Positions 302 to 4,855 of a stretch of 54,767 bases of DNA are shown piece by piece. Origin of the DNA: Actinomycetales bacterium. GTDB taxonomy: Bacteria; Actinomycetota; Actinomycetes; Actinomycetales; Microbacteriaceae. The stretch covers positions 1-54,767 of the forward strand of contig JBBQDC010000001.1 of the NCBI GenBank assembly GCA_038319305.1, given 5' to 3'. The notes beneath the pieces are model-generated. The model had not been told where the DNA came from. It ran no database searches and saw only the letters and a list, made by a program, of their open reading frames with translations. How positions within the stretch are numbered: the stretch's first letter is position 1; every line of letters starts with the position of its first letter. The translations under genes and the position numbers were made by a program.

Positions 302-907
302 TTATTTTTTGGCGCTGAGCTGTTCGATGATCGCCTGGGCGACGTCGTGCATGGTGAGCCGGCGGTCCATGGATGCCTTCTGGATCCAGCGGAACGCCTC
401 CGGCTCGCTGAGCCCCATTTTCTCGTTGAGCAGGCCCTTGGCCCGGTCGACGAGCTTGCGGGTCTCGAAGCGCTCGACGAGGTCGGCCACCTCGGCTTCG
501 AGGGTGATGATCTGGCTGTAGCGCGAGAGGGCGATCTCGATCGCGGGCAGTAGGTCGTTCGGGGTGAACGGCTTGACCACGTACGCCAGCGCGCCGGCCT
601 CAGTGGCTCGCTCGACCAGTTCTTTCTGGCTGAACGCGGTCAGCAGAACGACGGGGGCGATGTGCGCCTTGGTGATGCGCTCGGCCGCGGAGATGCCGTC
701 GAGGTGGGGCATCTTCACGTCCATGATGACCAGGTCGGGCCGAAGCTCGGTGGCTAGGGCGACGGCGGTTTCTCCGTCGCCGGCTTCACCCACCACCTCG
801 AACCCGGCGTCACGGAGGATTTCGACGATGTCGAGGCGGATGAGGGACTCATCCTCGGCAACGACAACGCGGCGAGGAGGTACTGGGGTGGAGTCTTGGT
901 CGGTCAC
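302..907 (-). CDS. pdtaR: REC-ANTAR response regulator (PdtaR/Rv1626-like)
   Basis: REC motifs VVVAEDE, DLVIMDVKMP, YVVKPF; ANTAR motif RAKGLL...EAFRWIQKASMDRR. Start moved to GTG 907 because the longer ORF overlaps the tRNA. Confidence 0.9.
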   Translation of the reverse strand: MTDQDSTPVPPRRVVVAEDESLIRLDIVEILRDAGFEVVGEAGDGETAVALATELRPDLVIMDVKMPHLDGISAAERITKAHIAPVVLLTAFSQKELVERATEAGALAYVVKPFTPNDLLPAIEIALSRYSQIITLEAEVADLVERFETRKLVDRAKGLLNEKMGLSEPEAFRWIQKASMDRRLTMHDVAQAIIEQLSAKK

Positions 908-945
908 GGGGGAAAGCCTACGGTATTCTGATGCAGGTGTTGTGA

Positions 946-1031
946 GCCGGTGTGGCGGAATGGCAGACGCGGAGCACTCAAAATGCTTTGTTCGCAAGGA
1001 CGTGTGGGTTCGAGTCCCACCACCGGTACCA
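946..1031 (+). tRNA. tRNA-Leu (anticodon CAA)
   Basis: Acceptor GCCGGTG/CACCGGT, D-loop TGGCAGAC, anticodon arm GAGCA-CTCAAAA-TGCTT, long variable arm, GGTTCGAGTCC T-arm, encoded CCA. Confidence 0.96.
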
Positions 1032-1085
1032 ACACCTCAGCCTGAAATCTCTCTTCCACGGGGCATTTTGCCTCGTCCGCCTGAC

Positions 1086-1565
1086 TCAGTCGTGAGCAGG
1101 TCGAGCGGCATTGCCGCGCTGCATGTCTTCTTCCAGGAGAGCGGTGATCGATCGTAGCGTCTCCGGGGACACATCCCCGAGGGTGCGAGCCGCGAAATTG
1201 ACGACGCGCTGGGCACGCAGGCTCTTCACGAACGCCAACTGGGAGTCGACACGTTCCGGGAGGTCGCCGTCAGAACCCAGCAGATACTCGGGTGGGATGC
1301 GGAAGAACTCACCGATGCCCGTGAGCAGGTCGACATCGGTCACGAGAGGTCCGTCCCCGGTGATCATGTAGGCCCACCGGGCGCGGGAGAGCGACAGGCC
1401 CCTCGCCTGGAGCCCCGCGGCGATCTGCTTGTAGGTGTGCGGCGTATTGCCCTCGGCAACAACGACGTCGAGCAGGAGGTTGAGCTTGCGCGCCAGTTCG
1501 CGCTGCGGGCTGATCCGTTCGTCCTGTGGGACGACTGTTCCGTCGATGACTCCGGGATCAATCAT
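1086..1565 (-). CDS. EspR-like (XRE-type HTH) DNA-binding protein
   Basis: LARKLNLLLDVV..PHTYKQIAAGLQARGLSLS..EFFRIPPEY..ERVDSQLAFVKSLR..FAAR aligns by eye with the EspR/Rv3849 pattern; ATG 1565 with AGGA upstream. Confidence 0.7.
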   Translation of the reverse strand: MIDPGVIDGTVVPQDERISPQRELARKLNLLLDVVVAEGNTPHTYKQIAAGLQARGLSLSRARWAYMITGDGPLVTDVDLLTGIGEFFRIPPEYLLGSDGDLPERVDSQLAFVKSLRAQRVVNFAARTLGDVSPETLRSITALLEEDMQRGNAARPAHD

Positions 1566-1569
1566 GGTG

Positions 1570-2604
1570 TCAAGTCCTGTCGAGTGTCGCTGAGCCGGCG
1601 AGGGTGGCGGCGGGAGGTGACGTGATGGGTTTCGCCCGAACATGGTCCTCGGCGGCGTTGATCAGCATCCGTTCGGATGCAGTCACGTTCTGGGCGGGAT
1701 CGAGGAGCAGGCTGTCCCGAATCTCGACGTATCGCCGGTACAGGTGGGCACCAGGATTTCTGACGAGGAGGAGCCCCAGGTGGGAAAGGTCACGCTCGAT
1801 GCTGAGCTCTGGGAACCCAGCCAGCAGGCGCTCCCACAGCGGGGTGATGCGCCAGAGCAGCACCCGGTCGCGAGCAGACTTCCGGGTGATCTGGATGGCG
1901 TCGGCCCCGGCCGTCAGGCCCAGCCCGACGGCGAGGCTGATCGGTGCCGCGAACAGGGAGAACTGGTACAGGGAGAGAAGCCACCCTTGGAAGGCGAATC
2001 CACCGAAGATGACCGACACAGCCGCGCTGGCCAGGCTGATAATCGTGTAGACGAGAATCCAGAAGCATCCGAACACCACAGCGCCCAGAGCGACCCGGGT
2101 GACAGTACGGCGCTGGGTGCGCCGGTCCCTCAGACAGGCCGAGGCCACCGAGACGGAGAAGAACGCGATCGCCAGCCAGGTGGTGGCGGCGTATAGCGCA
2201 TAGTCAGCACGGGAGAGGAACGGCAGACGGATGTCGTCGCTCAGGTGCCAGTCACCGCCGAAGAACAGGAGAGCCTGTACGAGAATGATCGCACCGGCAA
2301 CCAGAGCGGTCACCTTCCGCCGCCGGGGTGTGAGGCCGCGCGGCGAGATCGCTTCCTGCACAAGGTTGCTCACGAGTGCCACGGAAACAATGGCGGTCGC
2401 GTGAAACAGGAAGTACGTGACGTGAACTCCGCCGAGCAGGGGATCGATGCGGTAATACACGAGATCCGGTTGCAGAGTCAGGGTCGTTGCGAGGGCGGTG
2501 AGCACCCAGAACAGTGATCGACGATGCCCTCGAACGAAGAAGGGAACACAGAACGCAACGGCGACCCAGAGGGCACCCGACACTGAGAGCAGGATGATCT
2601 GCAC
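1570..2604 (-). CDS. 7-TM membrane protein with C-terminal soluble domain (MAB_1171c family / DUF6545-like)
   Basis: Seven hydrophobic segments in the first ~235 aa, then PLWERL..FPEL..LYRRYVEIRDSLL, typical of this family. Confidence 0.7.
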   Translation of the reverse strand: MQIILLSVSGALWVAVAFCVPFFVRGHRRSLFWVLTALATTLTLQPDLVYYRIDPLLGGVHVTYFLFHATAIVSVALVSNLVQEAISPRGLTPRRRKVTALVAGAIILVQALLFFGGDWHLSDDIRLPFLSRADYALYAATTWLAIAFFSVSVASACLRDRRTQRRTVTRVALGAVVFGCFWILVYTIISLASAAVSVIFGGFAFQGWLLSLYQFSLFAAPISLAVGLGLTAGADAIQITRKSARDRVLLWRITPLWERLLAGFPELSIERDLSHLGLLLVRNPGAHLYRRYVEIRDSLLLDPAQNVTASERMLINAAEDHVRAKPITSPPAATLAGSATLDRT

Positions 2605-3098
2605 TACAGCACCCGGCCGAAACCGTTGCGGGGACCGCTGGCTGCGTCGGCGTTGTCGTTCAGCATGATCAGGGCCAGCTGATCACCGATAGCTTCGGCC
2701 AGGGCCTCCTGCTCGTCAGTGAAGTTGCTGCGAGACAGCGCGTAGGCGATCGAGTCCAGCGGGATGAGAGGCGCAAGCAACGCCACCCGCTCCACCGGTA
2801 CGAGCACTTTCTCGTGCCTCAGGATCATGTGTCCGAATTCGTGGTTGATGAACTGTTGGCGGTGAACGGCGGAGTCCGTCGGCGCGTGATGGATGCGCTC
2901 GAAGTTCTCCCCCGCGACCTCGATCCACAATCCGCAGACCCCGGCGTCGAGCAGTCGCGAACTGGCCGCGCGAATCACGATCGGCCTTCCACGCAGCCCT
3001 TCCATGTGGCGGTGCAGCTTCTCGGCGGTCAACGGACGCGGTAGTCCGAGGGCAGCCACCAGAGAACGCGCCCGCTCCGTGCGTGCTTCGTAGTTCAC
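2604..3098 (-). CDS. IrrE/ImmA-like zinc metallopeptidase domain protein
   Basis: CGLW..HRQQFINHEFGHMIL (HExxH) and downstream EQEALAE; its stop overlaps the next start by 1 nt. Confidence 0.75.
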   Translation of the reverse strand: MNYEARTERARSLVAALGLPRPLTAEKLHRHMEGLRGRPIVIRAASSRLLDAGVCGLWIEVAGENFERIHHAPTDSAVHRQQFINHEFGHMILRHEKVLVPVERVALLAPLIPLDSIAYALSRSNFTDEQEALAEAIGDQLALIMLNDNADAASGPRNGFGRVL

Positions 3099-3146
3099 GG
3101 ACTGCTCCCGTTCCTGCGCCGCCGGCCTCCTGAGGCCTGATCGGTG

Positions 3147-3202
3147 ATATTAGACATGTCCAACAGATGCTAACGTGATCATTGGTTGGACATGTCTACG
3201 CT
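3147..3202. promoter_or_regulatory. Perfect 14-bp inverted repeat (putative operator) overlapping divergent -10 boxes
   Basis: TAGACATGTCCAAC (3151-3164), 20-nt spacer, GTTGGACATGTCTA (3185-3198); TAATAT on minus (3152-3147), TACGCT on plus (3197-3202). Confidence 0.7.
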
Positions 3203-3278
3203 AGCGGGTCGGGGGACCTGCGCGCGCCACGGGCCGTCCAGTCACGCTCCGTCGTGGAGTTCACGCGCACAACCTCAT

Positions 3279-3310
3279 GGGCGACACCGAAGGGGAACAG
3301 GGTGTCGCCC
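3279..3310. repeat. Perfect 10-bp inverted repeat / hairpin
   Basis: GGGCGACACC (3279-3288), 12-nt loop, GGTGTCGCCC (3301-3310). Confidence 0.6.
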
Positions 3311-3354
3311 GGAGGCGGTGGGTCGGAGATATGCGACGCTGAGACCTGCAGCAC

Positions 3355-3396
3355 GAGAAAGCCCCGCCACCCGAAACCGGGCGGCGGGGCTTTTTC
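3355..3396. terminator. Bidirectional intrinsic terminator downstream of pyk
   Basis: AAAGCCCCGCC..GGCGGGGCTTTTT GC-rich stem with A-tract before and T-tract after. Confidence 0.85.
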
Positions 3397-3409
3397 GATT
3401 CAGCCGGCG

Positions 3410-4855
3410 CTACTTCTTCGCGTAGGCCGGGTGCACCTCATTGTGGGCATCGCCCACGCAGTGCACACGGATGTCGTTCGTGGAGCCCGCAATTCCGGGA
3501 GGGGAACCGCTGATGACGACGACCTTGTCACCGAGCTGGGCCAGACCCTGGCCCAGCAGGATGTCATCTACCTGTCCGAACATGGCATCCGTGTGGGTGA
3601 CCCGGTCGACGAGGTACGTCTGGATTCCCCAGGTGAGGGCCAGACGACGACGGATGCCGGGCTCCGGGGTGAAGGCCAGCATGGGGATCTTCGACCGCAG
3701 ACGGGACATCCGTCGGGCCGAGTCACCAGACTCCGTGAAGATGCAGAGAAACTTCGCTTCGACGAACTCGGCAACCTCGATGGCGGCAAGGGTGATCGCG
3801 CCACCCTGGGTGCGCGGCTTGTTCGTCAGCGGAGCAATGCGTTCCAGGCCGTGGTCCTCGGTCGACGCCACGATGCGCGCCATCGTCTGGACCGTCACGA
3901 CGGGGTATTCGCCGACACTGGTTTCGCCGCTGAGCATGACCGCATCCGCGCCGTCGAGCACGGCGTTGGCGACGTCAGACGTCTCCGCGCGCGTCGGCAC
4001 CGGGCTGTGGATCATGGACTCAAGCATCTGTGTCGCCACGATGACCGGCTTCGCCATGCGGCGGGCAAGCTCGACCGCGTGCTTCTGAACGATCGGAACG
4101 GCCTCGAGTGGGAGTTCCACGCCCAGGTCTCCACGGGCGACCATGATGGCGTCGAATGCGTCGACGATGCCTTCGAGGTTCTCGACGGCCTGCGGCTTCT
4201 CGATCTTCGCGATCACGGGAACGCGACGGCCTTCTTCAGCCATGATCTCGTGCACCCGGGTGATGTCGGCAGCGTCGCGAACGAATGACAGTGCGATCAG
4301 GTCCGTGCCGAGGCGGAGACCCCAGCGCAGGTCGGCCTCGTCTTTTTCAGACAGGGCCGGCACGTTGACGGCCACGCCGGGCAGGTTAATGCCTTTGTTG
4401 TTTGAAACAGGGCCGGCGACGATGACCTTCGTCGTCACGACGGTACCGTTTGTGACCACGACCTCGACCTTGACCTTGCCATCGTCGATCAGCAGGAAGT
4501 CGCCCGGCTTGACGTCCATGGGCAGGCCCTTGTACGTGGTGCCAGAGAGTTCCTTGGTGCCGAGGACTTCTTCTGTGGTGATCTTAAAGATGTCGCCGAC
4601 GGCCAGTTCGTAAGGGCCGCCTTCGAACTTTCCGAGCCGAATCTTCGGTCCCTGCAGGTCGACCATGACGGCAACGGCGCGGCCGGAATCGTTCGCAGCT
4701 TTCCGTACGTTGGCGTAAACGCCCTCGTGGACTTGGTAGTCCCCGTGGCTCAGGTTCATCCGACAAACGTCGACGCCGGCATCGATAAGGGCACGAATTT
4801 GATCGTAGCTGGCTGCTGCCGGCCCGAGCGTGGCGACAATTTTGGCGCGTCTCAT
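3410..4855 (-). CDS. pyk: Pyruvate kinase
   Basis: KIVATLGP, RMNLSHG, DLQGPKIR, MVARGDLGVE, ATQMLESM, VMLSGET. Confidence 0.98.
   Translation of the reverse strand: MRRAKIVATLGPAAASYDQIRALIDAGVDVCRMNLSHGDYQVHEGVYANVRKAANDSGRAVAVMVDLQGPKIRLGKFEGGPYELAVGDIFKITTEEVLGTKELSGTTYKGLPMDVKPGDFLLIDDGKVKVEVVVTNGTVVTTKVIVAGPVSNNKGINLPGVAVNVPALSEKDEADLRWGLRLGTDLIALSFVRDAADITRVHEIMAEEGRRVPVIAKIEKPQAVENLEGIVDAFDAIMVARGDLGVELPLEAVPIVQKHAVELARRMAKPVIVATQMLESMIHSPVPTRAETSDVANAVLDGADAVMLSGETSVGEYPVVTVQTMARIVASTEDHGLERIAPLTNKPRTQGGAITLAAIEVAEFVEAKFLCIFTESGDSARRMSRLRSKIPMLAFTPEPGIRRRLALTWGIQTYLVDRVTHTDAMFGQVDDILLGQGLAQLGDKVVVISGSPPGIAGSTNDIRVHCVGDAHNEVHPAYAKK

Follow-up and report, generated by a model that had tools for sequence, protein, structure and literature searches.

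How might a membrane protein, a zinc peptidase and a DNA-binding regulator work together when their genes lie end to end on one strand? The question is raised by a three-gene cassette in a 54,767-nucleotide stretch of DNA, here called the window, from an Actinomycetales bacterium of the Microbacteriaceae (GCA_038319305.1, contig JBBQDC010000001.1, positions 1-54,767; genome of 2.74 Mb, 86% complete). All three genes read on the reverse strand. M (2604-3098, GTG start, 164 amino acids [aa]) encodes what appears to be a small stand-alone zinc metallopeptidase of the M78/ImmA-IrrE type; T (1570-2604, GTG start, 344 aa) encodes a MAB_1171c-like membrane protein, modelled as a seven-transmembrane (7-TM) bundle resembling G-protein-coupled receptors (GPCRs) and followed by a DUF6545 domain; and H (1086-1565, ATG at 1565, 159 aa) encodes an EspR-family XRE helix-turn-helix (HTH) regulator with a C-terminal dimerisation domain.

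A sequence-only reading of the window had proposed that T is a receptor whose cytoplasmic tail controls M, which in turn inactivates H, and we judge it fairly probable that the cassette is a receptor-gated protease-repressor switch. In the proposed mechanism, the three genes would form a one-operon transmembrane switch, in which T would hold M on the inner face of the membrane through its DUF6545 helix and the tail of M, and a signal would switch M on. By analogy with ImmA, IrrE and CapP, M would then cut H at L116|R117 in the dimerisation domain, and the cut regulator would leave its palindromic operators, so that autorepression would be coupled to positive feedback. The signal would be a small-molecule or cell-envelope cue, presumably read by the fast-evolving transmembrane (TM) domain of T. 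Beyond the sequence-only reading, the analysis adds the GPCR-like predicted fold, the operator pair, the modelled contact of the C-terminal tail of M and the link to the mycobacterial espR locus.

A conserved three-gene cassette

M, T and H are real genes and not chance frames. Their codon bias is of the coding type (GC content of 0.78-0.80 at third codon positions vs 0.43-0.48 at second positions, the same as in pyk), and comparison with four orthologous loci of Cryobacterium, the nearest named relatives of the cassette, indicates purifying selection on all three, with nonsynonymous divergence (dN) of 0.07-0.32 and synonymous divergence (dS) of 0.51-1.21. The compact layout that had been described is confirmed, with one base (2604, in TAGTG) common to the M stop and the T start and a 4-nt gap (1566-1569) between T and H; an alternative longer H frame of 185 aa begins at 1643 and overlaps T.

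The sequence-only reading had also mentioned similar triads in other actinobacteria, and a neighbourhood survey bears this out. In an order sample of 151 genomes, 31 match the M profile, and all matches of at least 31 bits, each taken with about 10 kb around it, give 26 loci in 22 genomes; a weaker match (29.5 bits), without T and H, was kept out. An H gene lies within 5 kb of M at all 26 loci, and an intact T is directly downstream of M at 25 of them, the remaining locus having a frameshifted T. H directly precedes M in 20 of the 26; H-M-T is the usual gene order and the M-T-H order of the window is a rearrangement. Similarly, M lies directly upstream in 11 of 12 loci of one family (f5) that were centred on DUF6545, and the reading frame of M runs into that of T in 33 of 44 pairs. 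Phylum-wide, M matches were found in 13 of 251 genomes, 11 of them in the class of the window, and Streptomyces-like genomes hold several cassette copies each. No description of the triad or its architecture was found in the literature searched, with most subscription journals outside its coverage.

Additional genes accompany some loci. A protein of about 200 aa without a Pfam match, often translationally coupled after T (L063, L064, L068, L079, L080, and L084), may be either an additional, fourth component or a shared target. Larger clusters with extra, divergently arranged H and M genes occur at L078, L080, and L082, two of which adjoin a gene for a 660-790-aa protein without a Pfam match.

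A divergent M78-type peptidase

The motifs read from the M translation are present as H86-E-F-G-H90 and E129-QEALAE135, in which E131 and E135 are the ligand candidates. The M profile matches 543 representatives at E<=0.001, and in the best 150 of these, from which the conservation counts were taken, HExxH is retained in 148 of 150 relatives, the catalytic Glu in 149 of 151 rows, E131 in 145 and E135 in 142, which gives the pattern of HExxH with a downstream Glu zinc ligand expected of the family. E131 and E135, together with G56, W58, H95, and R123, are conserved at 90% or more, C55 and H79 at 81-87%. The Pfam family PF06114 is barely touched by the window protein (10.2 bits vs a cut-off of 22; E 0.65) and is matched at E<=0.01 by 48 of 125 aligned members of the M family, and M therefore appears to belong to a divergent subfamily.

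The structure model of M, with a pLDDT (predicted score in the local distance difference test) of 87.7, has the fold of the IrrE N-terminal domain. Its best matches are Deinococcus PprI (Z 8.8; root-mean-square deviation [rmsd] 3.3 over 101 aligned residues), CapP (Z 8.4; 5.8 over 129), and a transcription regulator of M. tuberculosis (6d2s, Z 8.0), and the first chain beyond these relatives reaches Z 4.9. A PDB sequence search with the M profile gave nothing significant. The C-terminal HTH-like and GAF domains of the ssDNA-activated (single-stranded DNA) IrrE/CapP subgroup are absent from this single-domain protein, whose GAF score is 14.1 against a cut-off of 22.4. Because of the motif conservation, the PF06114 matches of relatives, and the PprI/CapP-like model, M is read as a divergent, ImmA-sized M78 peptidase without a sensor domain of its own, in line with the IrrE/ImmA-like assignment made from the sequence. 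M ends in a hydrophobic-Gly tail (FGRVL), and such a motif is terminal in 89 of 150 M relatives vs 33+/-5 for random 16-mers. Four database proteins (P0108, P0140, P0095, and P0149) resemble H-M, M-7TM or M-DUF6545 fusions, which are either real or frameshift artefacts.

A receptor-like fold predicted for the membrane protein

In T, seven hydrophobic helices lie within residues 2-232, the seventh extending into the cytoplasmic domain, and the soluble tail carries LYRRYVEIRD at 288-297, as the sequence-only reading had described. Its placement in the DUF6545/MAB_1171c family also stands: DUF6545 (PF20182) is found at 245-322 with 39.6 bits vs a cut-off of 24.4, and NF042915 (the MAB_1171c family) spans residues 11-303 with 88.5 bits (E 4.3e-25), just under its cut-off of 100, and is matched at E<=0.001 by 86 of the 88 aligned T relatives.

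The T model (pLDDT 87.1) was compared by VIA with 48,161 representative chains, and 47 of its best 50 matches are chains of GPCRs from several classes, the other three being LYCHOS and two designed folds of the GPCR-like kind; no transporter is among the 50, and a further comparison gives the same picture. The top match is a bitter-taste receptor (TAS2R; Z 14.3, rmsd 3.6 over 216 residues), and identity to the fold matches is 6-15%. The topology is N-out/C-in, with 20 Lys and Arg residues on inner loops vs 3 on outer loops, so that the model has both the seven-helix arrangement and the orientation of a GPCR. The preference for a receptor-like over a transporter-like T is thus supported by the predicted fold, and the label 'transporter' attached to NF042915 finds no support in the fold searches. 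As for common descent of T and GPCRs, the likeness concerns the predicted arrangement only. Among the 88 T members, no GPCR Pfam family was matched at E<=0.05, with single weak matches to HisKA_7TM, WLS-like_TM, and PalH; a PDB sequence search with the T profile gave no significant GPCR match, nor anything significant overall; and an ESM Atlas search with the homologue P0224 matched only DUF6545 or unnamed actinobacterial clusters. HD-GYP likeness of the DUF6545 tail was likewise unsupported, by hhalign (probability 0.3% over 7 columns, with a thin template of Neff, the effective number of sequences, 1.4) and by hmmsearch against five HD-GYP domains. Nine text supplements of PMC13581589 contain no DUF6545 or MAB_1171c term, and the other supplement files could list the family.

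Among same-site orthologues, the TM domain of T reaches a dN of 0.33 in three of the four pairs and 0.10 in the fourth, with dS raised too; the T tail (dN 0.09-0.23) and M or H (0.07-0.11) change more slowly than the TM domain. Fast divergence of this domain would be as expected if it were a sensing module open to exchange. Among viral proteins (BFVD), the T bundle is best matched by membrane proteins of Gordonia and Mycobacterium phages, 220-260 aa long and without the tail (E 0.008-0.6; TM-score 0.53-0.67 by target), which are possibly phage-borne relatives or decoys.

Predicted contact between membrane protein and peptidase

A contact between the T tail and the peptidase, as the sequence-only reading would require, is predicted by a complex model built from T(1-325), M and Zn. 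The interface score ipSAE is 0.73, whereas none of three controls scores above 0.00; of the solved complexes, 116 of 157 reach the mark applied, as do 2 of 215 mismatches, a calibration that is rough for this T-M job. The runs agree in at least 92% of contacts, and the partner pLDDT is at least 76. In the first modelled contact, DUF6545 helix 285-301 of T lies on M residues 76-82 and 132-146, on the face formed by H79, Q82, and D139, and T D297 (91% conserved) is paired with M H79 (79%). In the second, M 157-164, with F160 at the centre, lies on the cytoplasmic helix ends of T (28-31, 81-86, 156-173, and 227-232). The C-terminus of G-alpha binds GPCRs at the matching cytoplasmic cavity, and the tail of M is predicted to enter T much as G-alpha enters a GPCR. 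Recall of a homologous complex by the predictor is a less likely source of the pass because T has no solved sequence relative, and GPCR-G protein complexes could still bias the pose.

The surface of CapP that docks CapH, as given in the accessible part of 10.64898/2026.05.16.725639, maps by simple residue offset near M W58/I69. These residues are outside the T-M contact list, which weakly favours an enzyme that is tethered and switched on in place by the signal over one that is simply released, with the balance only slightly tilted.

The regulator and its likely operators

H has no significant match in Pfam or NCBIfam. A profile of 55 H relatives matches M. tuberculosis EspR structures at E 1.9e-9, with H 18-127 aligned to EspR 6-112 across the HTH and the dimerisation domain, and hhalign of H with a mycobacterial EspR orthologue gives 98.4% over 118 columns at about 31% identity. 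H is thus, on profile evidence, a full-length though distant homologue of EspR, with an N-terminal HTH and a C-terminal dimerisation domain homologous to those of Rv3849, which upholds the EspR-like label first given to it. Orthology is not indicated: H neighbours tRNA-Leu and pyk instead of showing Rv3848-Rv3850 synteny, falls outside the mycobacterial EspR clade and has two strong sites only instead of nucleoid-wide binding. A 129-aa 'transcriptional regulator' (PDB 9sf2_A) weakly matches the C-terminal half of H (E 0.014) and EspR (7.5e-4); the literature searched contains no paper linked to this code.

According to the accessible text of PMC3315491, the C-terminal domain of EspR mediates its dimerisation, removal of ten residues makes the protein lose its activity, and EspR binds to the promoter of its own gene. 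M78 peptidases are described as cutting repressors within the dimerisation domain, at L106|R107 in DdrO, F82|R83 in CapH, and F95|M96 in ImmR (PMC12828697 and 10.1101/2022.04.27.489752, in the parts available). A Leu, Met, Val or Phe followed by Arg stands at H positions 116-117 in 30 of 35 diverse members, and L116|R117 of the window protein is by this analogy a candidate M cleavage site; the two residues may instead be kept for dimerisation.

Alignment of upstream regions revealed a pair of palindromes, kept in eight loci (L001-L008), at 3151-3162 (TAGACATGTCCA, proximal to M) and, 36 bp away, at 3187-3198 (TGGACATGTCTA, distal; inverted repeat I1). They are the sole exact matches to TRGACATGTCYA in the 2.74-Mb genome (0.06 expected), with position weight matrix scores of 26.5 and 22.9 vs 14.7 for the next best genome site. 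The pattern occurs in 33 of 41 genomes of the genus, vs 5 for the reversed control. Of 27 genus genomes with a close M, 21 carry it upstream of M, no more than about 200 bp away and at several sites in the chromosome; in the other six, it is just downstream of H in five and not near M in one. Related H proteins go with related palindromes, as three TTGAGCATGCTCAA-type sites are found in L071 and L072 and the same core lies upstream of M in L062. The two palindromes are likely H operators, and H most likely represses its own operon.

Between the operators, TAGCAT (3167-3172, reverse strand) is a candidate -10 element of the M-T-H promoter; TAGCA[T/C] is present in seven of eight aligned loci and TATCAC in one, and a sigma-70 scan found no full promoter. 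An ATG within the proximal operator opens a 20-codon frame (3095-3157, reverse strand) whose TGA overlaps the GTG start of M. The same arrangement is seen in L001 and L003, and the ATG is in frame with M in L005, L007, and L176, which points to a transcript that begins within the operator and is nearly leaderless. In L154, L171, L173, and L181, the operator is downstream of H, and in two of them it is followed by a gene for what we take, from its translation, to be a photolyase-related protein.

A structured non-coding stretch (3200-3400, forward strand) diverges from the operators and accompanies the cassette. Hairpins are found near 3204-3222 and near 3279-3310, and the stem at 3354-3397 looks like a two-way terminator, with compensatory changes in 13 of 25 consensus pairs across 13 loci. 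Without the terminator its z is only -2.0 and inconsistent among loci, and in Rfam only the tRNA was matched. The stretch might serve the switch as an output in the form of a small RNA.

Weighing the switch against its rivals

Several results count against a receptor-gated protease-repressor switch. The main gap is the H regulon, for which no convincing third site was found in this 86%-complete genome; no H target gene is evident because the cassette alone carries the strong operator. The predicted fold of T does not by itself show a function, because its Z of about 13-14 is near the level that unrelated helical bundles reach by common arrangement and because GPCR-like 7-TM folds are common in bacteria, with known cases in kinases and cyclases (accessible parts of PMC13581589 and PMC10760455). 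In addition, Foldseek gave no match at E<=0.001 with the T model, nor with the M model, for which CapP was the top match at only E 0.03. The modelled interface is no more conserved than the rest of the protein in either T (0.37 vs 0.34, p 0.41) or M (0.36 vs 0.40, p 0.69). H was detected in only five of the 12 DUF6545-centred family-f5 loci, and the related genomes in the co-occurrence counts are not independent evidence. Finally, one family member, Rir, carries the motif and shows no detectable cleavage (PMC12828697).

Other explanations would keep some of the observations and change their meaning. The complex may be real and its output something other than cleavage of H, with M acting as a stoichiometric antirepressor of H monomers, like the phage Rir-Crh pair, or cutting the T tail or another protein. 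The T-M interface is indeed extensive and near the HExxH helix (M 76-82 and 132-146), as a substrate might be, and the peptidase-like domain also has a match in a transcription regulator of M. tuberculosis (6d2s, Z 8.0); however, the catalytic Glu is kept in nearly all M relatives, H has the hydrophobic-Arg motif of cleaved repressors, and the tail contacts M as a folded helix and not as an extended strand, so that we regard such an output as unlikely, though worth keeping in view. It is very improbable that T is a transporter merely co-regulated by an ordinary ImmA/ImmR-like pair and without control of M. This reading would fit the name 'putative transporter' of NF042915 and the report that a MAB_1171c mutant makes less biofilm, the gene being listed among transport genes, but MAB_1171c is there a conserved hypothetical protein, and a transport assay is absent from the accessible text (PMC8707978). 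The absence of transporters among the best 50 fold matches, the N-out/C-in 7-TM topology and the T-M model, which passes where controls score 0.00, also speak against it.

A toxin-antitoxin or abortive-infection module, with H as the repressor of the operon and M or T as a toxic effector freed by stress or phage, appears quite unlikely to us. The cassette is patchy within the genus (27 of 41 genomes, at several chromosomal sites), its only strong operators are its own, and relatives of M are found in 99 plasmid records, in part with the annotation 'toxin', and in Mycobacterium phage Adler, where the order is XRE, XRE, M relative and then a 1,221-bp gene. COG2856-Xre pairs have been proposed as toxin-antitoxin-like (PMC2701414, in the part available), and the 'toxin' labels probably stem from that prediction. 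In contrast to what a defence role would suggest, PADLOC returned no family at E<=1 for M, T or H, which also leaves the phage sensing envisaged in the sequence-only reading without support, and M and T are stably kept by espR in 45 of 78 mycobacterial genomes. Among the 84 neighbour genes scanned, out of 177 called, most encode cell-wall or metabolic enzymes and not defence functions, HsdM and an integrase being seen once each and ArdC-like genes twice. The set includes four SLT transglycosylases and two M23 peptidases, a penicillin-binding protein, four alpha/beta hydrolases whose genes immediately follow T in the order sample, and, in family f5, FAD oxidoreductases.

Relation to known systems

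The logic of the receptor-gated protease-repressor switch is already known from ImmA/ImmR, IrrE/DdrO, and CapP/CapH; the literature searched, which leaves out most subscription journals, contains no description of a GPCR-like bundle coupled to a non-fused M78 peptidase and a regulator of the EspR type. ImmA/ImmR of the B. subtilis element ICEBs1, IrrE (PprI)/DdrO of Deinococcus, and CapP/CapH of CBASS (cyclic-oligonucleotide-based antiphage signalling systems) resemble M and H in joining an M78 peptidase fold with HExxH+E to an XRE repressor with a C-terminal dimerisation domain, and M is similar to ImmA in size and has no GAF domain. Those pairs are cytoplasmic and triggered by DNA damage, ssDNA, RecA or RapI (10.1101/2022.04.27.489752, PMC12828697, and 10.64898/2026.05.16.725639, in the parts available), whereas here a 7-TM gene is coupled to the peptidase gene, T is predicted to bind M, and the repressor is of the EspR type.

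The cassette also differs from eukaryotic GPCRs and from fused bacterial receptors. T resembles the former in its predicted seven-helix arrangement, its N-out/C-in topology, and the predicted lodging of a partner's C-terminal tail in the cytoplasmic cavity, but identity is only 6-15%, no GPCR family is matched by sequence, and there is no G protein; to our knowledge, no heterotrimeric G protein or arrestin partner is to be expected in Actinomycetota. In the BlaR1/BlaI and MecR1/MecI systems of staphylococci, an operon is turned on by way of a membrane sensor, a zinc protease activity and cleavage of the repressor, which is the logic proposed here. BlaR1 combines an M56 protease and a penicillin-binding domain outside the cell in a single polypeptide, whereas the cassette has a separate 7-TM bundle, without an extracellular domain, and a soluble M78 protein that matches BlaR1 at only Z 3.1. 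Bacterial GPCR-like 7-TM domains described in the available parts of PMC13581589 and PMC10760455 are fused to histidine kinases or diguanylate cyclases, whereas the transducer of T would be a non-fused protease. T itself lies over the DUF6545 (PF20182) cut-off and under that of the MAB_1171c family (NF042915). EspR has been described, as far as we know, without a protease or receptor partner. It is homologous to H over its full length and autoregulated, and C-terminal truncation abolishes its activity (PMC3315491, accessible text). EspR is a nucleoid-associated global regulator; H differs from it in the recognition helix and seems to have two strong sites in a genome.

The mycobacterial espR locus

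At one locus (L096, 3165-8308), between a GDT1 gene and a DUF6474 gene, lies a true EspR orthologue (229 bits), to which T and M are convergent. In the genus of this locus, espR is present in 78 of 81 genomes, and M lies within 4 kb of it in 45 of the 78; the named relatives of this espR-linked M are mostly Mycolicibacterium. At ten fetched loci without M, espR directly adjoins DUF6474. In M. tuberculosis, espR comes directly after rv3848 (PMC3315491, in the part available). Rv3850 is the next gene on the other side of espR. In a tree of EspR proteins, obtained by a quick search with SH-aLRT support only and without the M. tuberculosis protein among its sequences, the ten orphan EspRs nest among M/T-linked ones, nine of them in one clade and the tenth singly, and a linked sister genus falls outside. 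Because of this nesting, the tree indicates derived loss of M and T at the orphan espR loci and not gain at the linked ones. Across the wider family, M is present in 69 of 121 sampled genomes and, counted by eye, within about 5 kb of DUF6474 in 21 genomes of 8 genera, both tallies taking in one unpublished genome (G511).

The M. smegmatis-type locus names point to a further candidate. MSMEG_6431 is an EspR homologue (PMC5315357), and its neighbour by number, MSMEG_6430, a membrane protein with a length of 371 residues or more (PMC6386362), is possibly T. The substitution T371K in MSMEG_6430 appeared in two unrelated selections (PMC6386362, PMC6692514) and is probably a stock difference.

Genomic surroundings of the window cassette

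The cassette lies between tRNA-Leu(CAA) (946-1031, forward strand) and pyk. The adjacency to the tRNA gene pointed out in the sequence-only reading is therefore real, and its relevance is not borne out: across genomes of the genus the cassette occupies several sites, beside pyk, a methionine-synthase-like gene, an ArsR gene, and others (names read from translations), and, because of these sites and the lack of an att duplication, the tRNA neighbour is incidental. An integrative element at tRNA-Leu was considered and rejected, since no flanking att duplication is found in 900-3500, where a lone 16-nt match falls within M; the list of open reading frames shows no integrase between tRNA-Leu and pyk. 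Past the tRNA, an ANTAR response regulator (302-907, reverse strand), presumably PdtaR-like, is an ordinary conserved neighbour.

Implications

A wider and rather doubtful extension, which we put forward tentatively, is that MAB_1171c/DUF6545 proteins are a large bacterial family of GPCR-like, 'protease-coupled' receptors, whose soluble protease transducer, its tail plugged in like that of G-alpha, would destroy an EspR-type regulator. EspR of the tuberculosis bacillus would then be an orphaned output arm, freed from proteolysis when one lineage of mycobacteria lost the receptor and the protease. If the switch is real, it would add a phosphorylation-independent route of transmembrane signalling to the Actinomycetes, present also on plasmids and in a phage, and a family now labelled 'putative transporter' or 'toxin' would be re-annotated. 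It would also provide a bacterial GPCR-like bundle that couples to a non-fused partner, which bears on the origin of GPCR-type coupling. The window cassette, with three genes and one operator region, is a compact system for reconstitution. For EspR, the finding would supply a history, and, as receptor and protease are kept beside espR in fast-growing mycobacteria, it would make the turnover of EspR testable there, in species that are harmless.

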